Assembly (NCBI GenBank): GCA_903850545.1
Contig: CAINLW010000009.1
Coordinates: 2,311-66,310, forward strand
Source: an uncultured bacterium
Lineage (GTDB): Bacteria > Patescibacteriota > Minisyncoccia > Phycocordibacterales > GWA1-40-21
Reading direction: 5' to 3'
DNA length: 64,000 nt
How positions within the stretch are numbered: the first letter of the stretch is position 1; each line of letters opens with the position of its first letter. The notes under the pieces are model-generated. The model was given only the letters and a program-made list of their open reading frames with translations, had not been told where the DNA came from and ran no database searches. This document shows, piece by piece, positions 2,018-62,192 of the stretch. Made by a program: the position numbers and the translations under genes.

Positions 2018-3067
2018 ATGACAGAAACAGCTTTATATAGAAAATATCGTCCGCAAAAATTTAAAGAAATTTTGGGACAAGATCATATAGTAAAAGTACT
2101 AGAATCTTCTATTAAAAATGGAAATATTGCTCACGCATATATTTTTGCAGGTTCACGAGGAACTGGAAAGACCAGTATTGCTAGAATATTAGCAAAAGAA
2201 ATTGGCACAACAGTAAATGACATTTCCGAAATAGATGCAGCTTCTAACACCGGAGTTGATGATATCCGAGCTTTAAATGAATCTGTAAGCACTTTGCCTT
2301 TTGAATCTGTATATAAAGTTTATATTTTAGACGAGGCTCATATGCTTTCAAAATCTGCTTGGAATGCGCTTTTAAAAACAATTGAGGAACCTCCTAAACA
2401 TGTAATTTTTATTCTTGCTACTACTGAAGCAAACAAAATTCCTGAAACTATCATTTCAAGATGTCAGACTTTCTCATTTAGAAAACCAACTCAAAAAATG
2501 CTAAAAGATGTAGTTGTGGCTATTGCAAAAAAGGAAGGTTTTTCCTTGGAAGCCTCCTCAGCGGATCTTATCGCTTTGCTTGGAGATGGGTCTTTTCGTG
2601 ATGCGCAAAGTATTTTGCAAAAAGTAATGAGTGCTTCAAAAGACAAAAAAATTAGTCATGAAGAAGTAGAACTTGTTACTGGTGCACCAAAAACTGAGCT
2701 AGTAAATGATTTTATAAGAGCTATAGACGAAAACAATCTTGAAATAGGACTTGGAGCTATTTCAAAAGCCACCGAAGCAAATATTGATATGCTTTTATAT
2801 TTTAAACTCGTTCTTCATAAGATGCGTTCAATACTTTTGCTTCGAAATCTGAAAAGCTCAGAAGGGAAGTTACAAGATGAAATGACAGATACCGATTTTA
2901 AATTTCTAAAAGGTCTTGCCGATAAAAAACCATCAAACCCGCCTACAGGTCGGGCAGGAATTACTTCTGATACTTTACTTACACTTTTATCTTATTACGA
3001 TATGGTGGCAAAAGCGTATATTCCCGAGTTACCACTTGAGATCGCTCTTACAAAGCTCATAAAATAG
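2018..3067 (+). CDS. dnaX: DNA polymerase III gamma/tau subunit, short form
   Basis: N-terminal YRKYRPQKF..GQDH, Walker A GSRGTGKTS, DEAH-like ILDEAHML, sensor SRCQ. Confidence 0.85.
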   Translation: MTETALYRKYRPQKFKEILGQDHIVKVLESSIKNGNIAHAYIFAGSRGTGKTSIARILAKEIGTTVNDISEIDAASNTGVDDIRALNESVSTLPFESVYKVYILDEAHMLSKSAWNALLKTIEEPPKHVIFILATTEANKIPETIISRCQTFSFRKPTQKMLKDVVVAIAKKEGFSLEASSADLIALLGDGSFRDAQSILQKVMSASKDKKISHEEVELVTGAPKTELVNDFIRAIDENNLEIGLGAISKATEANIDMLLYFKLVLHKMRSILLLRNLKSSEGKLQDEMTDTDFKFLKGLADKKPSNPPTGRAGITSDTLLTLLSYYDMVAKAYIPELPLEIALTKLIK

Positions 3068-3113: not shown

Positions 3114-4874
3114 ATGACCAGTCTAGAAAATAATAAATTTGAAAAAGTGTCTTTAAATGACAAGATGGAAGAATCCCCACTGTTTTCAAAAAGATTTTAT
3201 GAAAAAATGCGTTTATTTGCATTAGCTGGTTTATTGCTTATGCCCGGTTATGGAATTGCATCAAAAAACAAAAACGAATCTACTGAAACATCTACTTCAC
3301 AACTGGAAAATAATCCAAACTATAACGATAGTTTAATAGAGCAATTTAATAAAATTAAACTTGAATCTCCACATATACACAATACATTTTTTATAAAAAA
3401 TGAAAAAACTGGTGTAATTGAAACAAACTGGTGGGCATTACTCGCACCATTTCAAGTAGAATTACCTTGGACAAAAGATGGAGTTAAAGATAGTTATAAC
3501 GTATTACATGATTATGCTCGTCTTTTCATATCCGCAGGAGCACTTAACAATAAAGAATATTCAAAAATTTCAGAATTAATGGAGCAAGAAATAAAACAAC
3601 AGTTGGTAGAAGTTTTATACGGTTTAGACATAAGCAAAAAAGCTCATGAAGCCAATGAAGCGCCAAATTTTGATCAATTAAAAATTGAGAGTATCAATAT
3701 AACCGGAACGGCTTCTCCAGAGGGTCCAGCTTATAAAGGACCAGAAACAATTGAAAGTGTAGATCCAGAAAATCTCAAATTGGCACATTCAAGAGGAGTA
3801 AGTGGTTTTGATGAAATAATTAAGTCACTTAAAAAATTAGGAATAAATCCTGATGAAAAGATATTGCAAAAAGCTCTTTATGGTATTAACTTTGAGGAAG
3901 TGCAATTTTCACCAGATGAAATGAATAGAATGGCAGAATTATCCCGTGACTATTTTGGGTCAGATTCTTTGGAAAAGATCTTTAATATGATTGTTGATTA
4001 TAATGATAAAAAAATCTCAGATCCAAATTTAGTTTTGGAACTTGATTCGAGGGTTGCTTCAAAAAGATCTGTAGAAATTGAAATCGAATATTCTGGCAAA
4101 TTGCATCGAAGCTTCTTAGTACCAATACCACTTTTGCTTTTTATATTACCTTTTATATTTGGAGATGGTCGCAAAAAATATATAAGTAAGATTTCAAAAA
4201 ATGGATCATTTTTTAATGAAAATTATGATACTTTGATTAAATCGGGAAGTGGCGCATATGGTGATAGTGAAAGTGCTGGAATAAGTAACATTGGTAAAAT
4301 TGGTGGTCCAGATAAAGTCAGTGAAGTTTCTATTACAAGTAGCGGAAATGTTGAAAAAATAAGTGAAGCAGAAAAAATTGGTTCTGCAAACGCAATAACA
4401 GAAACTGAAAAAATATCTGAAAATTTTCTTAAATATTATTATTCATCCACTATACCTGAAGGAAAAGATAGTGAGCAAATGGAGGAGGCAACATGGATTG
4501 ATGATCTCTATAATTACTTCGACAGCGAGATTGCGATTAAGAGGGGTTTGAGTTATCGAGCTATTACTGATTCTATTTTATATGATAGTAAAATCTTTAA
4601 AAATAGTGATGAGATAGAATTAAAACTTACATTTCTTATTTTAAATAAATGGACCGAGCATGATTTGGCGGCTCGTCGTGAAGCCGGAGTAGATGAAAAT
4701 GTAATAAATGACGGTTTGAATTACACTGAAAATAATGAGCAAATAAAATGGGCTCGCATGCACGCAAAAGCCATTATTGAGATTGTTAAAATGAAAAAAG
4801 AAAATCCAAACAAGGATTATGAGGAATTGCTTGCAATAAAAGTTCAACAACTTCAAAAAAGAAGAACTTTTTAA
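3114..4874 (+). CDS. Hypothetical membrane-anchored protein (N-terminal transmembrane segment, internal hydrophobic segment)
   Basis: 586-aa ORF. Hydrophobic stretch LFALAGLLLMPGYGIA near the N-terminus and LVPIPLLLFILPFIFG internally. No recognisable catalytic motif. Confidence 0.45.
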   Translation: MTSLENNKFEKVSLNDKMEESPLFSKRFYEKMRLFALAGLLLMPGYGIASKNKNESTETSTSQLENNPNYNDSLIEQFNKIKLESPHIHNTFFIKNEKTGVIETNWWALLAPFQVELPWTKDGVKDSYNVLHDYARLFISAGALNNKEYSKISELMEQEIKQQLVEVLYGLDISKKAHEANEAPNFDQLKIESINITGTASPEGPAYKGPETIESVDPENLKLAHSRGVSGFDEIIKSLKKLGINPDEKILQKALYGINFEEVQFSPDEMNRMAELSRDYFGSDSLEKIFNMIVDYNDKKISDPNLVLELDSRVASKRSVEIEIEYSGKLHRSFLVPIPLLLFILPFIFGDGRKKYISKISKNGSFFNENYDTLIKSGSGAYGDSESAGISNIGKIGGPDKVSEVSITSSGNVEKISEAEKIGSANAITETEKISENFLKYYYSSTIPEGKDSEQMEEATWIDDLYNYFDSEIAIKRGLSYRAITDSILYDSKIFKNSDEIELKLTFLILNKWTEHDLAARREAGVDENVINDGLNYTENNEQIKWARMHAKAIIEIVKMKKENPNKDYEELLAIKVQQLQKRRTF

Positions 4875-5530: not shown

Positions 5531-6601
5531 TTAAATTTTCCAATTACCTTTTTCCTGAATTACTTTTCCATCAACAATAATTTGTGCTTTTTTCATACTT
5601 TTAACAATATCCCAATGTAGAGAGGAATCATTTCCACCACCGTTTTCTTTGTAGGCGGCACCCAACGCTAAGTGAATTGTACCACCGATTTTTTCATCAA
5701 ATAATAAATTGTTTGTATATTTATTTATTTTTGGGTTACAACCAATACCAAGTTCCCCTACAAATTCTGAATTTTTGTCTAATGCAAGCATTTTTTTCAA
5801 ATAATCAAGATTTTTTGTCGCTTTTGCTTCAATCACTTTTCCATCTTTAAAAACTAATTCTATATCAGAAACTTCTTTTCCATCTCGAACAGAAGGGAAG
5901 TCAAATTTAATATAACCATTTAAACTTTCTCGAACTGGAGCCATAAAAACTTCACCACCTGGCATATTTTCCTCACCTTTATCAGCAACGGCTTTTTCTC
6001 CATGCACCTTCATTTTCAAATCTACACCAACACCCACAAGGTGAACCTCACTATTTTTCTTAAATTTTAGCAAAATTTTATCCATCAATTTACCCAATTT
6101 TTTCCAATCTTGCAAACACGCACCGAAAACAAAATTTTCGTATTCTGTAAGTGACATCTCAGCTTCTTGTGCTAAAGCTTGGCAAGGATATCCAACAGTG
6201 ACTCTGTGCATTAACGGTTTTGAATTACAAATATGTTCTCTAATAGAATGCGTTACTTTTGATCTTGTGGCGATTTTATTTGAATCACAATTTGTAAGTT
6301 CTCTTGTGTTTGTATCTGTATCTATACCGATATATTTTTGGGAATTTTTGACTACAAACTCAAAATCCTCCGGAAATTTTTCTAGCTGGTGTTGTTGCGC
6401 ATGAGTATAATACGTATGAGTAAGCCCGGGTAACGATAATCTTAACACTGGATGTGCACCTGCTTTTATTACTTCTTCATATAAAACTCGTATAAATTCT
6501 TCTGCTTCAGTGCTACCCGAGATAATAACTTTTTCATTGTGTTTAACAAAAACAGAATATTTAACTACCAACTGCGCTAACTTTTTTGTTCTAATATCCA
6601 T
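5531..6601 (-). CDS. M29-family aminopeptidase (AmpS/PepS-like), tentative
   Basis: 356 aa. N-terminal MDIRTKKLAQLVVKYS and overall layout resemble thermophilic aminopeptidase II (M29). Confidence 0.5.
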   Translation of the reverse strand: MDIRTKKLAQLVVKYSVFVKHNEKVIISGSTEAEEFIRVLYEEVIKAGAHPVLRLSLPGLTHTYYTHAQQHQLEKFPEDFEFVVKNSQKYIGIDTDTNTRELTNCDSNKIATRSKVTHSIREHICNSKPLMHRVTVGYPCQALAQEAEMSLTEYENFVFGACLQDWKKLGKLMDKILLKFKKNSEVHLVGVGVDLKMKVHGEKAVADKGEENMPGGEVFMAPVRESLNGYIKFDFPSVRDGKEVSDIELVFKDGKVIEAKATKNLDYLKKMLALDKNSEFVGELGIGCNPKINKYTNNLLFDEKIGGTIHLALGAAYKENGGGNDSSLHWDIVKSMKKAQIIVDGKVIQEKGNWKI

Positions 6602-6760: not shown

Positions 6761-8284
6761 TTATTTTAGCACAATTATTGTTTCGTCTCTATCAGGCCCA
6801 ACTGAAATAATCCGAGTTTTAACACCAGCCTCTTTTTCAATAAACGAAATAATTTTTTTAAGTTGTTGCGGAAGTTCGTTTACATTTCTTAGTTTACGAA
6901 TAGTTGTTTGCCAACCAGAAAAAGTCTTATATATTGGTCTACAATATTTCAAAACTTCTTTGTCTGGAATTGCAATGTTGATTTTTGTTCCTTTATTTAA
7001 TATAAGTTCACCTACATGATATTTTGGGCCAGTATATTCATAAGCTACACAAATTTTAATTTCTTTACATAAATCCATTACATCAATTTTGGTAAAAATA
7101 ACATCTGGACCGCTAAATTGAACCGAATATCTTAAAAAGGGAAGATCTAGCCAGCCAGTTCGTCTCGGTCGTCCTGTTGTGGCACCGTATTCATAACCTG
7201 CCATTCTAACAGCTACACCAAGTTTAAATTCATCTGTTTGATCAAGTAGTAAATCTCCAAACTTATCTTTCTCCATCTTTTTTGTTATTCCAGACGTTCC
7301 ACACCATTTGGCCGATTTTAAACCACCCATTTCTGTTGGAAAAGCACCTTCACCAACCCTAGTCATGTATGGAGCCTTTATAATGCCAAAAGTCATATCA
7401 ACATCATTTTCATGCAACCCAACGCCTTTAGCTAAGCCAGCGATTGTGCAATCTGAAGCTGTAACAAAAGGATAAGTGCCATGATCAATACTAAGCAGGT
7501 TTCCTTGAGCACCCTCAAGAAGTATTTTCTTTTTACCAAGATTTTTTCTCAAATAAGTATCTGTATCTGTAATATTATTTTTAAATATTTTGCCATATCT
7601 AGTATATTCTTTAACTATTGCATCTATATTAAATATATTTTTATTGTCGTAAAAACGTCCACAACCCAAATGCTCATGTTGAAGAATTTGTTTAATTACT
7701 TTTTTATCATATTGATTAAGTAAAACTATTTTTTCACGAAGATTTCTAATAAGCTTTTCTTTAAAAATTTTAGGATTAAGCAAATCATTAACAGTAAGGC
7801 CTATGCGAGCATAATGGTCTTCGTATACTGGACCAATTCCTCTGCCAGTTGTGCCTATTTTATTCAAACCAGCTTTGCTTTCTTTTACTCGATCTAATAA
7901 TAAGTGTTGAGGTAATACTAAGTGAGCATCTTTAGAAAAGAATATGTTTTTATTACTACACCCCGAGGCTTTTAAAAGCGACATTTCATGTTCTACAACA
8001 GCTGGATCAAAAGCAACTCCGCTACCAATAATATTAATTTTACCTTTTGAATCATATAGAATCCCTGACGGAATAAGATGGAAAATATATTCTTTATCTT
8101 TGAGACGAATGGTGTGTCCAGCGTTTGCTCCACCAGTACCACGTGCAATAATATCTGCCCATGAACCAAAAAAATCTACAAATTTTCCTTTTCCGGTATC
8201 GCCCCATTGATTGCATACAACTGCAATAGTTTTTTTACCTTTTAATAATTCGCTCGTTTTTTTAAAAAGATTTGTTTTTAACAT
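6761..8284 (-). CDS. purA: Adenylosuccinate synthetase
   Basis: QWGDTGKGKFVD P-loop. GGANAGHTI motif. Longer than the usual 430 aa, at 507 aa. Confidence 0.85.
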   Translation of the reverse strand: MLKTNLFKKTSELLKGKKTIAVVCNQWGDTGKGKFVDFFGSWADIIARGTGGANAGHTIRLKDKEYIFHLIPSGILYDSKGKINIIGSGVAFDPAVVEHEMSLLKASGCSNKNIFFSKDAHLVLPQHLLLDRVKESKAGLNKIGTTGRGIGPVYEDHYARIGLTVNDLLNPKIFKEKLIRNLREKIVLLNQYDKKVIKQILQHEHLGCGRFYDNKNIFNIDAIVKEYTRYGKIFKNNITDTDTYLRKNLGKKKILLEGAQGNLLSIDHGTYPFVTASDCTIAGLAKGVGLHENDVDMTFGIIKAPYMTRVGEGAFPTEMGGLKSAKWCGTSGITKKMEKDKFGDLLLDQTDEFKLGVAVRMAGYEYGATTGRPRRTGWLDLPFLRYSVQFSGPDVIFTKIDVMDLCKEIKICVAYEYTGPKYHVGELILNKGTKINIAIPDKEVLKYCRPIYKTFSGWQTTIRKLRNVNELPQQLKKIISFIEKEAGVKTRIISVGPDRDETIIVLK

Positions 8285-25238: not shown

Positions 25239-25424
25239 GTATTAATGGTGTCAGAGATAGTGTCTTTTGCTAAGCGATAGCTTGTTGGCAACTTTTCTTA
25301 GCAGAATAACTAATTAGCGATATGATCAAGGTAGATTAATAATTTAAAAAGAGTTATTATGTGTAGGACAACTAAATAAGAAGTAGCCTAAACCAGTAGT
25401 AATACTGGCATGGTGAAAGTAAGT

Positions 25425-25510
25425 CCGTTGAAGATAAAAAACCCATCATGTGGGATTTGTCTTCAACGGCCGTATCTGGAAACAGGTATGGAGGGTTCAA
25501 ACCCTCACTC
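25425..25510 (+). other. Structured region upstream of the recombinase: a 10-bp perfect inverted repeat plus a tRNA T-arm-like hairpin; candidate attachment site
   Basis: ccgttgaaga..tcttcaacgg (25425-25469). gaggg-TTCAAAC-ccctc (25491-25506) fits the TPsiC arm consensus, but no complete tRNA could be folded. Confidence 0.3.
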
Positions 25511-39747: not shown

Positions 39748-39786
39748 AAATAATTTCGCCATATTTTTATCTTTTATTATAATCAA

Positions 39787-40035
39787 ATGTATTACCTCTA
39801 TATTCTTAAATGCGCTGATAAAACCCTATATACTGGAATTACAACAGATTTGAAAAGAAGAATTTTTGAACATAATAATACAAAACTTGGTTCAAAATAT
39901 ACTTCTTCTCGAAGACCGGTAAAAATTGTTTACTTTAGAAAATATAAAAATAGATCACTTGCTTCAATAGATGAGGCTAGGATTAAAAAATTAACAAGGA
40001 AAGAAAAAACCAAGTTAATAAATAAGAAATTGTAG
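39787..40035 (+). CDS. GIY-YIG nuclease-domain small protein
   Basis: YYLYILKCADKTLYTGITTDLKRRIFEH. Confidence 0.65.
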   Translation: MYYLYILKCADKTLYTGITTDLKRRIFEHNNTKLGSKYTSSRRPVKIVYFRKYKNRSLASIDEARIKKLTRKEKTKLINKKL

Positions 40036-40108
40036 TTTTGTGTATTTCGCCACGTTGATAATAGTTACGTTACGTGCTACTTTTCTTCATGAACGTTTTG
40101 GGAGGAAA

Positions 40109-40382
40109 AATGAATATAATAGTTAAAGCGGTAACAAATGTCGGTATGAAAGTCACAGGAAAAAGGACTAACAAGCTACCGAAGATTCCGCAAGGGTGCG
40201 GGTTGGTTGCTGTAATACACAAAGGGTCCGAAGATGTGTTAGAAGACGTGACATATTTAGCAAAATATATGGGTTGTCACATAAAGGACTGCTGCGGAAC
40301 ACACAGGATGGACCTATACATTCTGTCACATTATCAGATGCGGTTGTGTGGTATAGGGCCATGCCAACACAGCAAGAGGTAG
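40109..40382 (+). CDS. Cysteine-rich 91-aa ORF in a GC-rich segment
   Basis: GGGAGG 6 nt before ATG. 8 Cys including CCGTH and CGIGPC. The terminator-like hairpin cgcgcc..ggcgcg lies 34-66 nt downstream. Confidence 0.3.
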
Positions 40383-40459
40383 TTGAGTCACCTAGAAGTA
40401 CTCGTGATCGTCGCGCCTGTATTTTAAGGCGCGGCGATTATTTTTTTATATTTTCTGAT

Positions 40460-40493
40460 AACATTCCGACATTCTGCAGAATGTCGGAATGTT
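40460..40493. promoter_or_regulatory. Perfect 34-bp palindrome 50 nt upstream of the U32 peptidase start; candidate operator
   Basis: aacattccgacattctg|cagaatgtcggaatgtt centred on CTGCAG. Confidence 0.5.
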
Positions 40494-40543
40494 ACTTTAA
40501 ATTAGCCTTTCTTTTATTCAAATATAATGATAAAAATATACTA

Positions 40544-55278: not shown

Positions 55279-57054
55279 ATGTCCTCCGTAGATCAAATAA
55301 AAGAAAGATTAAATATTGAAGGTGTTGTTGGCTCCTACATCAAACTTGAGAAAGCCGGCAACAGCTTAAAAGCAAGGTGTCCTTTTCACAATGAAAAAAC
55401 GCCATCTTTCTTCGTATCTCCAGAGAGAGGAAGTTATTATTGTTTTGGGTGCGGTGCAAAAGGGGATATTTTTACTTTTGTTCAAGAATTTGAAGGTATT
55501 GATTTTCTTGGATCATTAAAAATTCTTGCAGATAAGGCAGGTATAACTCTTGAGAAATTTACTTCAAAAACTACTGACAAAAAAGAAAGATTATATCAAC
55601 TTTTGGAAACTGCGACTTTGTTTATGCAGAAAAACCTTGAAGCAGAAGATATTCCTTTAAGTTATTTGAAAAATAGAGGTCTCAACAACGAAACCATTAA
55701 AAATTGGAAAATAGGTTATGTCCGCGATGAATGGAGATCTATTTCTGATCATTTAAAATCAAAAGGGTTTATTGATGATGAAATAGAAAGAGCTGGAATA
55801 TCAAAAACTGAAGGAAAAAACACTTATGACAGATTTCGTGGACGAATAATGTTTCCTATTTTTGACTCTGCTGGACGTGTAATCGCATACTCTGGAAGAA
55901 TACTTCACGATGACGGAAAATCTGCAAAATATTTAAATTCGCCACAAACTGAGCTTTTTGATAAGTCAAAGGTTCTTTATGGATACGATAGAGCAAAACA
56001 ATCCATTAGAAAGTTTGATTTTTCAATTTTAGTTGAAGGACAAATGGATTTACTCATGGCACATCAAGCAGGTTTTACAAATGCTATTGCATCTTCTGGA
56101 ACCGCCCTCACAGTAGAACACTTGGCATTATTAAAAAGAATATCGAACAAAATAATAATGTCGTTTGATTCAGATTATGCGGGGGCAAAGGCAGCAGAAA
56201 GGGGATGGGCATTAGCACTTTCAAACGGAATGGATGTAAAAATCGCTGAAATACCAAAGGGATTTGATCCTGCCGACTTAATCCTTAAAGATAAAGAAAA
56301 ATTTAAAGATGTTATTAAAAATTCTACATTTTTAATAGATTTTCTTTTAAATAGAATTGAAGCGGAACATAAAGACCTGCCTGCGCAGGCAGGCAAAAAG
56401 AAATTGTGGCAAACAATAAAAAATAAGATTTTGCCATATGTTTACTTATTAGACGGAAATACGGAAAGAAGTAGATATGTAAAAAAAATATCCGATCTAA
56501 TAGACATAAAAGAAGACTTTATCTGGGATGATTTAAAAAAGGTCAAACTCGATGATGAATTTCAACCACAAAACACACAAGTCGAAAACAAAACTATAGA
56601 AAAAGAGATAAGTCAGGAAATATTAAAAAAAGGTTCGATAGAAAGAAGTTTGGCATCTATTTTGACTAAACAAGAGGGTCGGCAAACAGATACGACAAAT
56701 GTGCGAGAAAAAATAAAGAACATATTAAGTGATGAAAAATATTTAAAGTTTCAAGAAGAATACAAAAATAAAATAAATGAATTAGCTTTTGAAGCAGAGG
56801 GGTACTACGAAAATATTGACGACGATAAATTACAAAAAGAAACGGAATATTTGATTTTAAATCTACGCGAAGAATACTATAAAAAAGAACTGGAAAAGCT
56901 TTTAACAAACCTAAAACTAGCAGAAAAAAGTAAAATTGCAGAAATGATAGAGTCCATATCGCTAAGATTAAAACTACTGATGCAAAAATTAAGTGAGATT
57001 AAAAGCGAAAAAAATTCTTTTTATAAAAATAATCTCGATCAACCAAAAAAATGA
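55279..57054 (+). CDS. dnaG: DNA primase
   Basis: Zn-binding [33 protein letters not shown]. Confidence 0.85.
56374..56394. repeat. 21-nt palindromic insert gacctgcctgcgcaggcaggc, in-frame within dnaG (encodes DLPAQAG)
   Basis: Identical 21-mer at 60599-60619 in an unrelated gene. Core cctgcctgc|gcaggcagg is a perfect 18-nt palindrome. Confidence 0.85.
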
Positions 57055-58283
57055 AAAAACACAAAAAAACAAAAAAAGTTTCTAAAAGAAAAATAGTAAA
57101 AGTTAAAAAAACTATTAAAAAGATAGTTCATAAAACGTCTACTAAAACAAAATCTGCTCCAAAATCAAAACCCTCTCCAAAAACAAAAAGTCCAAAGATT
57201 TCTTCTAAACTTAAAGAAATGGATATAAAGGCAGGCAGACTTATTTCAAAAGGTAGAGAAAGAGGTTTTATTACTTATGATGAGATTCTAAAGGAATTTC
57301 CTAAAATCGAAGATGATATTTTTTTCCTTGATGATTTATATAGCAAACTTGTAGTTGCAGGAATTGATGTTCTTGAAGGAGGCGGAATGCTTGAAGTTGA
57401 CGAAGAACAAATCAAAAAATATTCAACTTATGGCTCACGTTCAGCAGATGCTGGATATGACTCTATTCAAATATACTTGAAAGAGATCGGACAATATCCG
57501 CTTATCAATGCTTCAATGGAAAAGGATTTGGCAAGAAAAATTCAGCAAGGTGACAACGAGGCCAAAAATCTTTTAGCAAAAGCCAACTTAAGACTTGTTG
57601 TTTCTATAGCAAAAAAATACGTAGGAAGATCTGCCGATCTTACACTATTAGATTTGATACAAGAAGGGAACCTCGGTTTATTTAAAGCGGTAGATAAATT
57701 TGATTGGACAAAAGGTTTTAAATTTTCAACTTACGCAACTTGGTGGATAAGACAAGCGATTACAAGAGCTCTTGCCGACCAATCAAGAACAATCCGTGTA
57801 CCAGTTCACATGGTGGAAACAATCGCAAAATACAAACAAGTTTACAGAAGGCTATCTCAAGATTTGGGAAGAGAACCTCTTTCAGAAGAAATTGCTACTG
57901 AAATGGGACTAGAGGTAAGCAAGGTTTACATGATTGAAAAAATTGACCAAGACACAATATCTTTGGAAGCTCCCGTTGGTGACGATGATGATGGAAAATC
58001 AACTCTTGGTGACTTCGTTGCAGACGATAAAATACTTTCACCTGATCAAGAATCATCCAGAAGAATTCTTTCTGACCAAGTTAAAGAAATTCTAAATGAC
58101 CTTTCATTAAAAGAGAAAAAAATTCTTGAAATGAGACATGGATTAAATGACGGTGTCACTCACACACTTGAAGAAGTCGGACTAGAATTTGGCGTAACCA
58201 GAGAAAGAATTAGACAAATTGAAGCTAAAGCGCATGAAAAAATAAGAATTCATGAAAAAATAAATAGACTTCAAGCATATTAG
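57051..58283 (+). CDS. rpoD: RNA polymerase sigma factor, sigma-70 family (primary-like)
   Basis: Region 2 [23 protein letters not shown]. Region 4 [22 protein letters not shown]. 4-nt overlap with dnaG. Confidence 0.9.
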
Positions 58284-58362
58284 AAGCTGACTCCGTCAAA
58301 TTGACTTTTTTGACCGAGGCTGACTACTATCACGTTTGGTTAATAAATCATTATATTTAACC

Positions 58363-58395
58363 GCACCAACCACGAAGAGTGGGTGGTGCTTTTAT
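58363..58395 (+). terminator. Rho-independent terminator after rpoD
   Basis: gcaccaacc..gggtggtgc followed by TTTTAT. Confidence 0.55.
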
Positions 58396-58445
58396 AAACA
58401 AAAAAAGACTAGAAACTGTAGCATTTAAGTGCTAATATTTACTGT

Positions 58446-59087
58446 ATGAAAATATACTTTGTAAGACATGGTGAAAGCAAAGGTAATGTTGGACCTTTTG
58501 TTCAGGGTCCAGATGAACCACTTACTGAAGCAGGCCTTAAACAAGCACAGTTTGTGGCAAAAAGATTAGAATCTATTCCTGTTGACGTTATTTTAAGTAG
58601 TCCAGAAAAACGTGCAGAAATGACAGCAAAAATCATAAGTGCGACTATTAATAAACCAATAGAATTAAGTAATTTGTTGATTGAATTTGTTAAACCGTCG
58701 GTAATTGTTAAAAAACTTAAAAAAGATCCTGAAGTAAAAGAAATTAAAAAGCTTATAAAAGATCATTTTCACATTTATGGATGGAAACATTCTGATGAAG
58801 AAAATTTTGAAGATTTTAAAAAAAGAGCAATAAAGCTTCTTAATTATCTTTCAACACGTAAGGAACAAAACATTCTTATTGCTACACATGGAATTTTTAT
58901 GAGAATGCTTTTGGCGATTGTTGTTATGGGCGAAGAGCTTACCTCCCGTGAATATTGGAAATTTTTTATTACATTTTCCTTAGATAATACGGGTATAATG
59001 GTGCTTAAATCTAACGATGTTGGATTATATGAAGACTCACCTAAATGGGAATTGATTACTTGGAATGACCATGCCCACTTGGATTAA
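58446..59087 (+). CDS. Histidine phosphatase (phosphoglycerate mutase family)
   Basis: FVRHGESKGN catalytic RHG motif. Downstream ATHG. Confidence 0.65.
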   Translation: MKIYFVRHGESKGNVGPFVQGPDEPLTEAGLKQAQFVAKRLESIPVDVILSSPEKRAEMTAKIISATINKPIELSNLLIEFVKPSVIVKKLKKDPEVKEIKKLIKDHFHIYGWKHSDEENFEDFKKRAIKLLNYLSTRKEQNILIATHGIFMRMLLAIVVMGEELTSREYWKFFITFSLDNTGIMVLKSNDVGLYEDSPKWELITWNDHAHLD

Positions 59088-59093
59088 AAATTT

Positions 59094-60116
59094 ATGACCA
59101 CAGAATCTAACATTAGAAATATTCCACTTCCTGAAGATCATGAATTGATTGAACATTATCAACCAAGATTTTTAGGTATGGGCGGAGACCATCTTGTATA
59201 TGAAGTGGGAGGACATCCCGATGTTGTTATTAAAGCATCAACATATTATATAAAAGATATTTTGCTTGGCGAAAAGACAAAAGACCTTGTTGCAACTGAG
59301 ATATTAATAAAAAATGATCAAATCAGAGAGTTACGTGCTTTTTGGGGGAAAAAACACACTGTTCCAGAAAGACGTTACCTTATGCGAGTTCCGATTTCAA
59401 AAGATTTGTTAGATGAAATATTTAAAAATGATTGGTTAAGACGTGTTCCTCCAAATGGTTACGAGTCTTTAAAAGAGGTTTGGACATCAGTGATAGTGCA
59501 AGAAAAAGTTCCTGAAATTAATAACCCAGAACACAAAAGTTTTAGTTTTGGTGGTTTTGTGGAGGATGAATTAGAGAATATTGATCAAGTACAGTATGAA
59601 AAATTAAATCATACTTTTATTACCCATGAAACTGTATTAAATGAGGAAGATTTAAACCTATTCTTTAATCTACAAGATAGTCCAAAAACTCATCATTTAA
59701 AAGATCTGATCAAGCAAGCAGAAAGTGATAACGAGCTTAAAGAAATGCTTAAGAAGTTTGTTTTACAGGCGATCGATTTTGCAATAAAAACTGGGAATAT
59801 TTTGGCTCTAGCTGGAGAAAATAATGTTATTTTTTACAAAAAAGACAACGGCTGGAATTACTTACTAATAGATGCGACGCCCGTTCATTCAGGGCCAGTA
59901 TTTAAAGCATCCATGGAGATTCTTCATAAAATTATGCTTGGTGAGAATATTGATATTAAAGAAAAAGATTTATTAAAAAAAGGGTTAAATTTTACAAGAA
60001 CAATAAATGGTTTTGCAAAGAGTCTCGGTTTAAATGATTTTTTAGATATTATCAATACTCAAGATTCATTAGATAAAATTAATTTCTCAAGAATTTTTAA
60101 AGCATCTTTAAAATAA
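59094..60116 (+). CDS. Hypothetical protein
   Basis: 340 aa. No motif recognised. Confidence 0.4.
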   Translation: MTTESNIRNIPLPEDHELIEHYQPRFLGMGGDHLVYEVGGHPDVVIKASTYYIKDILLGEKTKDLVATEILIKNDQIRELRAFWGKKHTVPERRYLMRVPISKDLLDEIFKNDWLRRVPPNGYESLKEVWTSVIVQEKVPEINNPEHKSFSFGGFVEDELENIDQVQYEKLNHTFITHETVLNEEDLNLFFNLQDSPKTHHLKDLIKQAESDNELKEMLKKFVLQAIDFAIKTGNILALAGENNVIFYKKDNGWNYLLIDATPVHSGPVFKASMEILHKIMLGENIDIKEKDLLKKGLNFTRTINGFAKSLGLNDFLDIINTQDSLDKINFSRIFKASLK

Positions 60117-60229
60117 TTAAAACCATCTTATAGACTTGTGATTGTTTTGTTAACTCTAGAGAGATCGAGCCAAAATAAGGTCACTAATGTAACTATTCTA
60201 TATTTGCATTAATTTGATACAATAATCAA

Positions 60230-61843
60230 ATGAAGCAGCTTACAAAAACAGATTTTATATCATACAAAGAGTGTCCAAATAATGTTTGGATAAAATGGCA
60301 TATGCCGGAAGAATATGCAAAATTTCCTGTTTCTGAATTTGAACAATCGCTTGGAGAAATGGGAAATGAGGTTGAAGAATTGGCGCGTGATATGTTTCCA
60401 AATGGCTATTTAATTGAAAAAAGAAGCGAGGGCGCACAGGAACTCACGATGAAGTTGATGAGCGAGCATACGCCCATCATTTATCAGGCAGTGTTTAGTA
60501 CTGACAAATATTTAGCTGCAACAGATGTTATACACTGGAATGAAAAAGCTAGTGCTTATGACCTTTATGAAATTAAAATGTCTTCTACAGAAGGCGAGGA
60601 CCTGCCTGCGCAGGCAGGCGAAATAACAGATGATAACACTCCGCCAAAAGTAAATAAAAAAAGAGAAACTCAATATGAGTATGACCTCGCATTTCAAACA
60701 AATGTCGCTAAACTTTGTGGTGTAAATTTTAATAAAAAATATCTTGTTCGACTAAATAAAAAATATGTAAGAAGTGGGGAATTAGATTTTTCTAAATTAT
60801 TCGAAATAACAGATAAAACTGAAGTATTAAATGACATTTTTCTTTCTGTGACATCAACAGAAATGAATTCGGCTTATGAATATCTTTCAAACACGAAACA
60901 ATCCATTAAAAGGTGTCCGTGTTATTACAAAGGACGTTCGTCACATTGCACAACTTTTAGTATCAGCAACCCTGACGTGCCCATATACAGTGTTCATGAT
61001 TTAAACAGAATTGGAAATAGTAAAAAATATTTAAGTGAGCTTTTAAATGAAGGTGTAATGGAAATAGATAAAGTTCCAGAAGACGATAGGCTAAAACCAA
61101 AACAAAAGAAAAGTGGAGAACTAAGCAAGCCTAAAAAATTAAACCAAGTCAGAGTTTATAAAACAAAAGAACCCATTGTCGATATAATTTCTATTAAAAA
61201 AGAACTGGATTCACTAAAATATCCTTTGTATTTTTTAGATTACGAGACCTCACCTCGAGCAATTCCTCTCTATAATGGTTATCGTCCGTACCAACATGTA
61301 GTTTTTCAATATTCATTGCATATTTTAAAAAACAAAGATGCTAAACTTGAACATAAAGAATGTTTGATACTTGATGGGGATCCTGCTGAAAGATTGGTTG
61401 CAAGTTTAAGAAATGCTATTGGAGAAACTGGAAGTGTTATTTCTTGGTATAAAAGTTTTGAAAATTCTCGTAACAAAGAATTGGCAAATTTAGTGCCAGC
61501 TCAATATGATTTTCTTTACAGTGTCATCAATCGCACATATGACCTAATGGACATCGTCGATAAGCAATACTTTGTTCATCATGGTTTCAAAGGAAGTTCA
61601 TCGATTAAAAAAATACAGCCGGTTATTGCTCCAGATTTTTCATACAAAGAACTTGATGTACACAATGGAACAGACGCGATAGAGGCTTATAGACAAATAT
61701 CTAGCGGTGAATTAGTTGGTAAAGATGCTGAAGAAAAAAGACTGGCAATGCTTAAATACTGCGAATACGATACTAAAATTATGTATATAATATGGAAATA
61801 TTTCACTGATTTGATTGAAAATGAGCTTTTGCCAGATAAATAG
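60230..61843 (+). CDS. Cas4/RecB-like PD-(D/E)xK nuclease-like N-terminal region with a Cys cluster, plus a C-terminal DUF2779-like region; tentative
   Basis: N-terminal YKECP. DVIH..YDLYEIK (D..ExK). Cys cluster CPCYYKGRSSHC. C-terminal YFLDYETS segment. Confidence 0.35.
   Translation: MKQLTKTDFISYKECPNNVWIKWHMPEEYAKFPVSEFEQSLGEMGNEVEELARDMFPNGYLIEKRSEGAQELTMKLMSEHTPIIYQAVFSTDKYLAATDVIHWNEKASAYDLYEIKMSSTEGEDLPAQAGEITDDNTPPKVNKKRETQYEYDLAFQTNVAKLCGVNFNKKYLVRLNKKYVRSGELDFSKLFEITDKTEVLNDIFLSVTSTEMNSAYEYLSNTKQSIKRCPCYYKGRSSHCTTFSISNPDVPIYSVHDLNRIGNSKKYLSELLNEGVMEIDKVPEDDRLKPKQKKSGELSKPKKLNQVRVYKTKEPIVDIISIKKELDSLKYPLYFLDYETSPRAIPLYNGYRPYQHVVFQYSLHILKNKDAKLEHKECLILDGDPAERLVASLRNAIGETGSVISWYKSFENSRNKELANLVPAQYDFLYSVINRTYDLMDIVDKQYFVHHGFKGSSSIKKIQPVIAPDFSYKELDVHNGTDAIEAYRQISSGELVGKDAEEKRLAMLKYCEYDTKIMYIIWKYFTDLIENELLPDK
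60599..60619. repeat. Second copy of the 21-nt palindromic insert (encodes DLPAQAG in-frame)
   Basis: gacctgcctgcgcaggcaggc, identical to 56374-56394. Confidence 0.85.
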
Positions 61844-62017: not shown

Positions 62018-62192
62018 TGTCATCCTCGCTTCGGCAGGGTTGAAGTTGGGATGGGACCCAACTTCAAGGACGGACTGAGCGGAGGCGAAGGAGTCGGGGT
62101 CGCGAGATTTTTCAGCTGAAAAATACTTGTGATCCAGATTAATTGAATTAAAATGCGATACAACCTGGATCCCCGCATCCGCGAGGATGACA
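62018..62192. other. GC-rich structured element with 12-bp terminal inverted repeats and nested palindromes; candidate miniature mobile element or structured RNA
   Basis: Terminal inverted repeats tgtcatcctcgc (62018-62029) and gcgaggatgaca (62181-62192). Internal hairpin ttgaagttggg..cccaacttcaa. Perfect palindrome atttttcag|ctgaaaaat. gatccagatt..aacctggatc. Confidence 0.4.

Follow-up and report, generated by a model that had tools for sequence, protein, structure and literature searches.

An identical 18-nt palindrome is inserted in frame in two unrelated genes of the window, that is, of the whole 64,000-nt stretch of DNA analysed, and its two halves coincide with the termini of longer cassettes encoding a GIY-YIG nuclease. 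Both inserts are probably copies, of recent date, of the smallest and non-autonomous member of a palindrome-ended GIY-YIG mobile family, a reading to which we assign a probability of roughly 0.6. The whole analysis was computational.

Two identical inserts and their empty sites

The 21-mer GACCTGCCTGCGCAGGCAGGC, pointed out in an earlier note, occurs exactly twice in the window, at 56374–56394 and 60599–60619 on the + strand, and contains the perfect 18-nt palindrome CCTGCCTGCGCAGGCAGG in each copy (56376–56393 and 60601–60618, respectively; no strand is assigned to the palindrome itself). In 100 dinucleotide-preserving shuffles, no match was obtained even with up to three mismatches tolerated. 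The bases adjoining the two copies are unlike (a and g before, a and g after), so the shared identity is exactly 21 nt. The 18-mer has a G+C content of 78% against about 32% for the window, and is free of stop codons in all frames on both strands.

The first host gene (55279–57054, + strand) encodes a DNA primase DnaG of 591 aa with the Pfam domains Zn_ribbon_DnaG, DNAG_N and Toprim. The palindrome lies between GA and C of Asp366 and is read as LPAQAG (codons 56377–56394, residues 367–372), in the linker past Toprim, which ends at about residue 337. The second host gene (60230–61843, + strand) encodes a DUF2779-family protein of 537 aa with PF11074 at residues 334–458; here LPAQAG is placed between GA and C of Asp124, as residues 125–130, in an acidic linker N-terminal of PF11074. 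The repeated sequence, its palindromic core, its GC-rich composition in AT-rich surroundings, the preserved frame in both genes and the position of the dnaG copy after TOPRIM all agree with the earlier note. A possible third, diverged 21-nt copy, CCCGCCTACAGGTCGGGCAGG, is located at 2938–2958 (+ strand) and reads in frame as N-PPTGRAG-I within a 349-aa ORF (2018–3067) that looks like a clamp-loader/DnaX protein. This copy is similar to the LPTGQAG form of DnaG site 124.

The DNA of orthologues defines the inserted unit as 18 nt, CCTGCCTGCGCAGGCAGG, and six residues, LPAQAG, and not as the 21 nt and DLPAQAG proposed originally, since empty orthologues already possess the Asp codon. The insertion point is situated between bases 2 and 3 of this pre-existing codon (GA^C); the gain relative to empty-site DNA is exactly 18 nt, with an ambiguity of only 1 nt, and target duplication is absent. 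The empty dnaG site reads GAC-AAAAAG in L121, L152, L124 and L126, with GAC or GAT before AAAAAG among orthologues, and the empty DUF2779 site reads gaggac-gaagat (L123). The insert is absent from a DnaG of 89% identity (P0004) and from the nearest of at least 120 listed DUF2779 homologues (P0121, 88% identity, STEGED-EMTSDG). Most of 70 aligned DnaG homologues show …EIxD-KKKLW…, and most of 120 have …D-KKKLW… at the insert point. With orthologues of 88–89% identity empty, the insert is lineage-specific, a point for which the note had suggested an alignment of dnaG orthologues. Related loci totalling 784 kb contain no copy of the 18-mer, compared to 2 in 64 kb here. The insert is found in three near-identical DnaG proteins (P0001–P0003), which are encoded on four contigs of both NCBI and ENA origin; one of the three is set apart by two residues elsewhere. 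An assembly artefact is therefore unlikely.

Distribution and reading frame of the 18-mer

At least 120 stretches of DNA from species-representative genomes contain the exact 18-mer. The matches listed belong mostly to low-GC Patescibacteria of many classes and are spread over many phyla; cultured isolates and data sets from many laboratories are represented as well. The earlier note had compared the insert to Rickettsia palindromic elements, as a tiny palindromic element entering coding sequence, and had set against this its absence elsewhere combined with ancestral residues in relatives. The empty orthologues and the wide occurrence favour mobility.

Among the matches listed, the flanks are unrelated, except that the preceding base is a purine in 85 of 104 and the following base is a pyrimidine in 80 of 104; the combination of a preceding pyrimidine and a following purine is absent from these 104 flanks. 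Long ORFs contain 71 of the listed copies, distributed over the frames LPAQAG (53), PACAGR (10) and CLRRQ (8), and by sequence inspection at least one CLRRQ call (L008) is better taken as LPAQAG on the opposite strand. The 53 ORFs in the LPAQAG frame (at least 140 aa) matched 96 different Pfam families, among them SHMT, PolA, TopoI, GatB, GyrB, UvrD and another DnaG. The hosts in this frame are dozens of unrelated housekeeping proteins among the matches listed. The frame bias may stem from selection against the Cys/Arg-containing peptides PACAGR and CLRRQ.

GIY-YIG cassettes and intermediate forms

The two 9-nt halves of the 18-mer are the outermost ends of cassettes of 282–291 nt, which start with 5′-CCTGCCTGCGCC, encode a GIY-YIG nuclease and end with GGCAGGCAGG-3′, the end pair being CCTGCCTGC/GCAGGCAGG. 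Read as DNA, full-length cassettes start with CCTGCCTGCGCC and end with GCAGGCAGG in five cases out of five (L201, L070, L228, L229 and L230, the last two being one cassette in two assemblies); in L201, the cassette CCTGCCTGCGCCACGG … CGCGGCAGGCAGG is enclosed by GA and C. The encoded enzyme belongs to the UPF0213/YhbQ/Slx1-like GIY-YIG type; its closest solved relatives are the UPF0213 proteins 1ywl and 1zg2. The cassette lacks a start and a stop codon and is read through in frame as …D-LPAPRP-nuclease-RQAG…. It is placed after base 2 of a codon of the host gene, most often Asp (GA^Y), and host ribosomes thus translate it as an internal domain.

A cassette profile search retrieved 154 representative proteins at E ≤ 1e-30, a number that rises to 1,777 at E ≤ 1e-10, and nearly all of the best 150 matches are embedded in longer proteins. 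The left junction is x-LPAP(R/Q), where x is Asp in 65 of 105, and the right junction is (T/A)RQAG. HsdS accounts for 68 of the 92 cassette hosts of at least 300 aa; other hosts include HsdM, HsdR, other methylases, TrmD, trigger factor, ArgRS, QueC and TatD. The nuclease motif positions Y, YIG, R, H and E are invariant or nearly so across 92 proteins, which suggests purifying selection on the cassette nuclease.

No full-length cassette is present in the window. Its only GIY-YIG gene is a free-standing ORF of 82 aa with its own ATG (39787–40035, + strand; Pfam PF01541, E = 2.8e-15), which belongs to the UPF0213/YhbQ-like family, as does the cassette nuclease, and shares 36% identity with the cassette peptide (tblastn, E = 2e-10). 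Its product is a candidate trans-acting enzyme. By tblastn, GIY-YIG genes occur in 9 of 120 18-mer-centred loci versus 0 of 80 dnaG-centred loci, the latter being conserved neighbourhoods and hence a weak control; four of these genes lie no more than 500 nt from the palindrome.

Intermediate forms of 30–39 nt, found in both orientations, bridge the 18-mer and the full cassette; the 33-nt form, CCT(a)CCTGCGCCAagcgtaGCGCGGCAGGCAGG, consists of the cassette ends only. In DnaG homologues, LP…QAG inserts occupy at least four separate sites, and unrelated lineages have the intermediate forms repeatedly at the same ones. At site 212, a complete GIY-YIG domain is found between LPAPRPG and RTRQAG in P0037, and shorter inserts measure 36 nt (P0034), 21 nt (P0111) and 18 nt (L120). 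Site 124 holds inserts of 33, 21 and 18 nt, with an identical 33-nt variant in distant lineages. At site 366, carriers are dispersed over the tree amid empty sequences, and no full-length form is seen at this site among 120 homologues. Asymmetric short forms are in frame in dnaG in the forward direction at site 124 (L202) and in the reverse direction at sites 366 (L202) and 467 (L201). Since a full-length ORF in reverse would be almost certain to bring stops into an essential gene, the reverse forms most likely entered short. One hsdR gene (L070) combines a full cassette, a 39-nt form, an exact 18-mer and a decayed copy. Older copies in the DnaG alignment have decayed to LPIQTG, LSAQAG and PPAQAD.

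Origin of the short forms and comparison with known systems

Judged by these sequences, the 18-mer very probably belongs to the GIY-YIG cassette family. The autonomous form would be the cassette of about 282–291 bp, and the 18–39-bp derivatives would retain just its inverted termini, the 18-mer being the left 9 nt joined to the right 9 nt. In the window, the 18-mer was inserted at GA^C in disordered linkers, one in DnaG and one in the DUF2779 protein, and the target was not duplicated, LPAQAG being a presumably harmless addition to both. A GIY-YIG nuclease, either cassette-borne or free-standing such as that of ORF 39787–40035, may recognise the palindrome or the empty site and drive spread by homing into empty alleles with occasional ectopic insertion. 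Movement of the short forms as units in trans is rated at slightly better than even odds. We know of no GIY-YIG enzyme acting as a transposase, which counts against the proposed explanation. In 148 representative proteins with a full cassette, the accompanying short elements are never exactly LPAQAG; the 18-mer lineage that dominates in Patescibacteria may thus have a different partner or none.

The 18-mer could instead be the immobile residue of a full cassette at that very site, the interior having been lost by nuclease-mediated excision or hairpin-promoted deletion. We consider this unlikely. The size series at DnaG sites 212 and 124 agree with it, as does the classical cycle in which homing endonuclease genes invade, degenerate and are lost, and a symmetric cut leaving 2-nt 3′ CG overhangs (typical GIY-YIG chemistry), followed by ligation, would produce the exact 18-mer. 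However, reverse in-frame short forms in the essential dnaG are hard to obtain from a reversed full-length ORF, and about 40% of the listed copies lie outside long ORFs, where a start-less cassette would be unexpressed. Moreover, the Patescibacteria loci examined contain one full cassette (L201) versus dozens of short forms, and both the lack of a full-length form at site 366 and the identical 33-nt variant at one site in distant lineages argue against residues formed in place. A little less probable still is that the palindrome came first, spread by another process and served as the recognition or homing site into whose centre the cassette enters. Exactly the two halves flank full cassettes, the 18-mer is far commoner and wider spread in Patescibacteria than full cassettes, and a perfect 18-bp palindrome is the typical site of a dimeric DNA-binding enzyme. 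The 2-nt GC junction overlap fits a 2-nt staggered central cut, and is equally compatible with an 18-mer derived from the cassette or serving as its insertion site. Nevertheless, the 30–39-nt forms hold cassette-specific subterminal sequence (…GCGCCA…, …CGCGG…), which points to cassette derivation; the spread of the 18-mer is left unexplained, and cassettes at many host sites (HsdS, MsrB, TrmD, MGMT) would each need a prior 18-mer.

It is very improbable that the 18-mer is an independent REP-like palindrome moved by an IS200/IS605-type Y1 (RAYT) or other system, its likeness to the cassette ends being coincidental. A short GC-rich palindrome with no target duplication and a one-sided purine rule does resemble hairpin-guided single-strand insertion, and a Y1_Tnp (IS200-like) gene adjoins the four-element hsdR in L070 (Pfam E = 1.2e-5), but this is the only Y1 gene seen. 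All five cassettes have termini identical to the two 9-nt halves, graded intermediates join the two, all forms meet in the L070 hsdR, the GTAG/CGTC-type 5′ tag is absent and most copies are intragenic, unlike REPs. Marginally less credible is a selected, non-mobile motif, such as a DNA-uptake signal, a restriction/modification or protein-binding site, the LPAQAG peptide or an RNA hairpin. The exact sequence is kept across phyla in coding and non-coding DNA, folds as a hairpin (7-bp stem, 4-nt loop; −6.5 to −8.3 kcal/mol for DNA) and occurs in Patescibacteria, which are thought to depend on DNA uptake. Yet it arrives as an 18-nt insertion and not by substitution, at the low and patchy density noted above, in variable linkers, and older copies decay freely. 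Assembly or sequencing error, or chance coincidence, has a negligible probability: the source is metagenome-assembled and chimeric reads can make palindromes, but shuffles predict no copies, the insert recurs in three DnaG proteins on four contigs from two archives, mutated versions occupy orthologous sites, and isolates and many laboratories' data sets contain the 18-mer.

Palindromes related to a GIY-YIG cassette can be compared with several known systems. Rickettsia palindromic elements, reportedly described by Ogata and colleagues in 2000 in frame in unrelated protein-coding genes, resemble the 18-mer in being palindromic, in frame in unrelated genes, translated and housed in an AT-rich genome, which in Rickettsia is also reduced; they add peptides at tolerated surface positions and have a selfish character. 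They measure about 100–150 bp, are restricted to Rickettsia and have, to our knowledge, no enzyme-encoding autonomous partner, whereas the unit here is 18 bp (30–39 bp in larger forms), occurs in many phyla and has its ends in common with a nuclease cassette. GIY-YIG homing endonuclease genes (I-TevI, Seg) and inteins share with the cassette a nuclease ORF inside host genes, refilling of the same site in orthologues of unrelated lineages and the coexistence of filled, degenerate and empty alleles. In contrast to them, the cassette has no intron or intein and stays unspliced in the host protein; its nuclease is small and YhbQ/Slx1-like, without the DNA-binding extensions of I-TevI, and GC-rich terminal inverted repeats and mini-derivatives distinguish the family from classical homing endonuclease genes.

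MITEs and REP/REPIN sequences with RAYT are also short, multi-copy, non-autonomous forms sharing ends with an enzyme-encoding relative, and form similar GC-rich hairpins. However, the partner here is a GIY-YIG nuclease and not a DDE or Y1 (HUH) transposase, and the 18-mer lacks a target-site duplication and the GTAG/CGTC tag and is mainly intragenic and frame-specific, not extragenic. The GC clusters of yeast mitochondria and the PstI palindromes of Neurospora mitochondria are GC-rich sequences of about 18–50 nt in very AT-rich genomes; like the 18-mer, some lie in coding sequence, where they add residues to the protein, and mobility is presumed for them. Unlike it, they are organellar and differ in sequence, and no full-length form encoding a nuclease has been demonstrated for them. 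HIP1 (GCGATCGC) of cyanobacteria is likewise a short GC-rich palindrome in and out of genes, but it is an 8-mer, present at very high density and created mainly by substitution. The 18-mer is an insertion of low and patchy density, and the HIP1-type interpretation offered in the earlier note is rejected; nor did anything point to a role as a restriction or recombination hotspot as such.

A GIY-YIG domain of the Slx1-like kind has been described as "recently inserted" in HsdR of Methylococcus capsulatus, an 80%-identical homologue of which lacks it (Dunin-Horkawicz et al. 2006, PMC1564403). This case corresponds to the cassette phenomenon at the protein level, with an Slx1/YhbQ-like domain in a Type I restriction subunit, and was presented as a single curiosity, without the terminal inverted repeats, the in-frame read-through logic, the family-wide hosts or the mini-derivatives. 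No published description of the element family was found beyond this one anecdote. The cassettes represent a little-described family whose members are translated as part of the genes that contain them, in many uncultivated bacteria.

Two in-frame palindromes and their empty orthologous sites

The 21-mer GACCTGCCTGCGCAGGCAGGC, for which two occurrences had been claimed in the earlier note, has exact matches at 56374–56394 and 60599–60619, and the perfect 18-nt palindrome described within it was confirmed as CCTGCCTGCGCAGGCAGG. Dinucleotide-preserving shuffles of the window gave zero matches to the repeat, even allowing three mismatches. The G+C content of the window is about 32%, and when the window was scanned for perfect palindromes and for 20-mers rich in G+C, the two insert sites were conspicuous. 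The first copy of the 18-mer (56376–56393) lies in the gene of a 591-aa DnaG, in the linker past the Toprim domain, and the second (60601–60618) in that of a 537-aa DUF2779 protein, far N-terminal of the PF11074 domain. Both copies are read as LPAQAG preceded by Asp. A third, older insertion is possible at 2938–2958, where PPTGRAG is read within the dnaX-like ORF 2018–3067.

The insert is present in three near-identical DnaG sequences (P0001–P0003) from four contigs of NCBI and ENA sources. The alignment of dnaG orthologues proposed earlier demonstrated that the segment is lineage-specific: most of the 70 aligned DnaG homologues, including the 89% identical P0004, feature the empty form …EIxD|KKKLW…. 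The closest DUF2779 homologue (P0121, 88% identical) is also empty (STEGED|EMTSDG), and both sites appear to be empty in one relative, that of P0004 and P0121. The empty-site DNA of relatives, taken from JGI metagenome loci, reads GAC|AAAAAG or GAT|AAAAAG in dnaG and gaggac|gaagat in the DUF2779 gene. Therefore, the gain is the 18-mer alone, placed between GA and C of an existing Asp codon. The insertion into coding DNA with preservation of the frame thus stands as first described, and the unit has to be corrected from 21 nt encoding DLPAQAG to 18 nt, the Asp being already present in the empty orthologues. The insertion point has one base of positional ambiguity, and target duplication is absent. 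Both copies follow the rule of the family described below, by which the reading frame is kept and insertion follows codon position 2, typically in an Asp codon (GA^Y).

Folding of the 18-mer, another suggestion of the earlier note, yielded a hairpin with a 7-bp stem and a 4-nt loop of modest stability (−6.5 to −8.3 kcal/mol as DNA). A search against Rfam gave zero family matches at the two inserts. The region between rpoD and the DUF2779 gene (58446–60116) encodes a histidine phosphatase and a 340-aa protein without a Pfam match; on the syntenic contig of the relative with 89% identity, both genes are missing and the DUF2779 gene directly follows rpoD.

GIY-YIG cassettes and their short forms

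In an alignment of 120 DnaG homologues, inserts of the LP…QAG type occupy at least four independent sites, mostly directly past an acidic residue. Site 124 contains LPAPSVARQAG, LPTGQAG or LPVQAG; site 212, LPALHAQAWQAG or LPDGRQA; site 366, which is the site of the window copy, LPAQAG, LPIQTG, LSAQAG or LPAATQAQVG; and site 467, LPAQVG or LSATTVAQTG. In one DnaG (P0037), site 212 is occupied by a complete GIY-YIG domain extending from LPAPRPG to RTRQAG. The DNA encoding P0037 (locus L201) reads cat GA[C CTG CCT GCG CCA CGG … CGG CAG GCA GG]C gat; therefore, the terminal 9 nt at either end of this cassette are the halves of the window 18-mer. A 33-nt form in another dnaG locus (L202), ga[C CTa CCT GCG CCA agc gta GCG CGG CAG GCA GG]a, is the cassette ends minus the interior.

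The ends of the cassette family are 5'-CCTGCCTGC … GCAGGCAGG-3', and the window 18-mer consists of exactly these two halves. They were found in all five full-length cassettes read as DNA (loci L201, L070, L228, L229 and L230, of which L229 and L230 represent one cassette in two assemblies); the cassettes of L070, L228 and L229/L230 are 282–291 nt long, with ends as in L201. The window copies have no nuclease interior and can therefore only be non-autonomous derivatives. In L070, a single hsdR gene of 1170 aa combines four members of the family: one full cassette, the 39-nt form LPAPQSEAARQAG, an exact 18-mer (D-LPAQAG-G) and a decayed copy, LSAGQAG. Directly upstream of this four-element gene lies an IS200-like Y1_Tnp (RAYT-like) gene (L070:7482–7985, minus strand).

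The cassette peptide search detected the arrangement (D/N/G)-LPAPRP-nuclease-…RQAG within MsrB, TrmD, HsdR and MGMT fragments, and in one protein a full cassette is followed by a tandem short form. A cassette profile run over 1.84 billion representative proteins gave 16,686 matches at 1e-3, 1777 at 1e-10 and 154 at 1e-30; in nearly all of the best 150 of the 16,686, the match is internal to a longer protein. At the left junction, x|LPAP(R/Q), x is Asp in 65 and Gly in 17 of 105 full cassettes, and the right junction is (T/A)RQAG|. All 92 cassette hosts of at least 300 aa matched the Pfam GIY-YIG domain, and the Type I specificity domain (HsdS) was detected in 68 of them. Among the others are HsdM, HsdR and Eco57I-, TaqI- and Type III-type methylases, as well as housekeeping proteins (pseudouridine synthase, trigger factor, TatD, QueC, TrmD and ArgRS). 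Full cassettes (proteins P0255–P0402) are thus heavily biased towards HsdS, and within it they recur at two sites, …VPQDPND|EPASVLL… and …ARQEGR(A/D/S)|YEPAS…, a recurrence suggesting that defence genes contain preferred home sites of the cassette. Across the 92 host proteins, the GIY-YIG motif positions (Y, YIG, R, H, E) show little or no variation, which suggests that the cassette nuclease is still under selection. The nearest solved structures are the UPF0213 proteins EF2693 (1ywl) and BH0048 (1zg2), of the small YhbQ/Slx1-like type.

In the literature covered, which was incomplete, we found no description of the 18-mer, LPAQAG or a relevant LPAPRP, and an earlier description elsewhere is possible. 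The sole prior mention found is a remark on a GIY-YIG domain in one HsdR (Dunin-Horkawicz et al. 2006, PMC1564403).

Distribution and surroundings of the palindrome

The search of other genomes, carried out as an exact-match scan with one genome per species, found the 18-mer in at least 120 genome stretches. A 598-kb Paceibacterota contig (JBAZKU010000001.1) carries three or more copies. Among the matches listed, the majority belong to low-GC Patescibacteria from numerous classes (WWE3, Microgenomates, Paceibacteria, Saccharibacteria, Gottesmanbacteria, Uhrbacteria and Dojkabacteria), and further carriers include Bacteroidota, uncultured Gammaproteobacteria, Terriglobia and others; a few GC-rich matches could be due to chance. 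The flanks are mutually unrelated among the matches listed. Counted over the 104 listed copies whose loci do not exceed 52% G+C, a purine occupies position −1 in 85 and a pyrimidine position +1 in 80, and the combination of a preceding pyrimidine with a following purine occurs in none, which fits a requirement satisfied on at least one strand. Neither a target duplication nor a longer conserved flank was found, leaving only the preference at these two positions. The weak enrichment of AGA at the flanks is partly owed to five tRNA-Gln sites.

Stop codons are absent from all six reading frames of the palindrome. Over half of the listed copies lie inside ORFs, and the 71 listed copies in long ORFs are read as LPAQAG (53), PACAGR (10) or CLRRQ (8); for at least one minority-frame call (locus L008), inspection favours an opposite-strand reading as LPAQAG. 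The 53 LPAQAG-frame ORFs, selected at ≥140 aa, gave matches to 96 different families of Pfam, among them SHMT, PolA, TopoI, GatB, CysRS, FtsW, UvrD, GyrB, TrmD, SOD and another DnaG. The exact 18-mer was not found in 784 kb of dnaG-centred loci of relatives, versus two copies in the 64-kb window; therefore, its density is very patchy.

In IMG/VR, the exact 18-mer occurs in only 25 stretches, mostly contigs of 58–67% G+C, with mixed frames. No full cassette was found among 70 viral matches to the left-end pattern; one of these is a 33-nt short form, and the other 69, having no GIY-YIG ORF and lying mostly in GC-rich contigs, are read as chance. Plasmids yielded only free-standing homologues of less than 50% identity. 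Hence, viruses and plasmids appear not to be important carriers.

Five different Patescibacteria have a tRNA-Gln, duplicated or partial, that carries the 18-mer at the identical position between nt 9 and 10, in the context …GRTCR^TCTAATGG…, with an intact tRNA-Gln adjoining the disrupted copy (L027:1700–2110; L110, minus strand, about 380–760; L038, minus strand, about 6780–7200; L037:3520–4020; L042:340–490). The disrupted copy of L038 is otherwise a complete second tRNA-Gln, its 5' acceptor strand being altered. L027, L110 and L038 each have a free-standing GIY-YIG gene alongside, and L037 has an HNH-like ORF, so identified by sequence reading alone. At these sites, the palindrome may mark a junction arising from cleavage or recombination of mobile GIY-YIG genes. 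GIY-YIG genes are present in 9 of the 120 listed 18-mer-centred loci versus none of 80 dnaG-centred loci, which constitute a weak control; four of the nine are located no more than 500 nt from the palindrome. The only GIY-YIG gene of the window is a free-standing 82-aa ORF (39787–40035), bracketed by a 9-bp direct repeat ATTTCGCCA (39753–39761 and 40044–40052) as if inserted with target duplication.

Several other palindromic or structured features were noted. In the Bacteroidota loci L033, L083, L012/L102, L004/L043 and L105/L112, the 18-mer forms the end of longer repeats between genes, so that in these lineages the palindrome is embedded in larger non-coding elements. It terminates a 91-nt repeat in L033, two inverted copies of which (3390–3480 and 5735–5825) flank an operon. 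Several low-GC 18-mer loci (L066:2079, L097:7450, L105:4962, L112:5470 and L107:5737) share another recurrent GC-rich palindrome, (A)TCCGCCAGCTGGCGGA(T), which may represent a second micro-element family. The window itself contains a 36-nt perfect palindrome TAACATTCCGACATTCTGCAGAATGTCGGAATGTTA (40459–40494) just upstream of a large ORF with a probable start at about 40545; it is preceded by a 400-nt relatively GC-rich non-coding stretch (40040–40440), in which Rfam detected nothing at the gathering threshold. Between genes at 62019–62192, the inverted repeats tgtcatcctcgc … gcgaggatgaca enclose about 150 nt of GC-rich DNA with a spurious translation …DPRIREDD… and no Rfam match; this segment has the look of a small element of another kind, palindromic or structured. 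The LOOT RNA (RF03000) was matched at 25385–25506 over its full length with 85.6 bits.

Proposed mode of spread and relation to known elements

Asymmetric short forms are found in frame and in both orientations within the essential gene dnaG. Locus L202 carries one forward at site 124 and one as the reverse complement at site 366, where the opposite-strand counterpart of LPAATQAQVG is LPAPASRQAG; in L201, the form at site 467 is also reversed. Such reverse forms most likely entered as short units, because a reversed full-length ORF would be expected to carry stop codons. In the neighbour-joining tree of DnaG, the carriers of site-366 inserts are scattered amid empty sequences, the sister of the window clade being empty, and an identical 33-nt variant occupies site 124 in distant lineages. 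To judge from these sequences, this looks like repeated site-specific acquisition (homing), not descent. In the Patescibacteria loci examined, a single full cassette (L201) was found versus dozens of short forms. The reversed short forms, the scattered carriers and the rarity of the cassette all favour independent movement of the short forms.

In the proposed mechanism, the 18-mer would be the minimal non-autonomous member of the GIY-YIG cassette family, inserting at a purine^pyrimidine step (here GA^C) with no duplication and persisting in genes only at a tolerant linker and in the LPAQAG frame. Its spread would be driven by a GIY-YIG nuclease recognising the palindrome or the empty site; this enzymology we infer, and what the sequences show directly are the anatomy and distribution of the element and its relation to the cassette. 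Two close rivals concern the relation between the 18-mer and the cassette: the 18-mer might be nothing but the in-situ residue of a lost cassette, or it might be a landing pad into whose centre the cassette homes. Both fit the 2-nt GC overlap at the junction. GIY-YIG enzymes typically leave 2-nt 3' overhangs, and the overlap fits these as well. Exact LPAQAG is absent among the short elements accompanying 148 cassette-bearing representative proteins, which counts against a simple link between the two. An excision footprint of a larger transposon with distant half-sites was rejected, as half-site scans revealed no kilobase-scale element and only short variants of 18–39 nt and cassettes of about 285 nt. 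A restriction site (ACCTGC or TGCGCA within the palindrome) also seems less likely, the flanks being purine/pyrimidine and not strictly A/T.

The window inserts behave as in-frame selfish palindromes, similar to the Rickettsia palindromic elements (RPE). The latter are about 100–150 bp long, fall into consensus families and are confined to Rickettsia, whereas the present element has 18 nt and occurs in Patescibacteria and other phyla; the comparison covered size and host. As derivatives of an enzyme-encoding parent, the inserts resemble MITE and REP elements. However, REP/REPIN are extragenic imperfect palindromes of 20–40 nt with a 5' GTAG/CGTC tag, while here the tetranucleotide tag is absent and over half of the copies are intragenic; as to the RAYT (Y1 transposase) gene that goes with REP elements, one Y1_Tnp gene adjoins hsdR in L070, and none was found in the window region examined. 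Inverted ends are shared with MITEs, but target duplication is absent, and the full-length partner encodes a GIY-YIG nuclease and no known transposase, in contrast to the transposase-encoding IS parent of a MITE. The parent is similar to a homing endonuclease gene, for which cleavage of the empty allele and copy-in by repair would be expected, and of these there is only an indirect pattern, the same DnaG site filled in unrelated lineages; the parent differs in having no intron or intein, in its terminal inverted repeats and in read-through expression. No intein or Hint domains were found in the cassette proteins, in which Pfam detected only GIY-YIG and host domains, and Rfam detected no intron within the window. 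The likeness to HIP1 drawn in the earlier note does not hold, HIP1 being the octamer GCGATCGC of very high density, in contrast to a different sequence and length and two copies per 64 kb here. The defining features of RPE, REP/RAYT, MITE, HIP1 and intron/intein homing elements are thus in no case fully present.

There is a substantial chance that the whole cassette family is an undescribed class of mobile elements. Slightly less than even odds (about 0.45) are given to the complete reading, in which YhbQ/Slx1-like GIY-YIG cassettes with GC-rich terminal inverted repeats and no start or stop codon would reside in frame in host proteins, above all restriction-modification subunits, and spawn palindromic, non-autonomous mini-elements of 18–39 bp, the latter spreading through essential genes in either orientation, in Patescibacteria as in other uncultivated bacteria. 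If this is true, hardly any known mobile insertion would be smaller than the 18-mer, and the nuclease would represent a novel type of mobility enzyme; UPF0213/YhbQ-type GIY-YIG nucleases, abundant and functionally obscure, would be pointed to as mobility enzymes. The pairing of a roughly 90-aa nuclease domain with an 18-bp recognition palindrome could also become a practical tool. LPAQAG and LPAP…RQAG would serve as a marker for cleaning alignments and annotations, and the elements would explain part of the lineage-specific GC-rich indels in Patescibacteria proteins. That full cassettes so strongly favour Type I restriction subunits, with HsdS in 68 of the 92 hosts, suggests an interplay of the element with host defence, possibly a conflict. 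Being small, in frame and free of stop codons, the element would let the host ribosome express its nuclease, and this would be a third way to occupy essential genes, without a self-splicing intron or intein.
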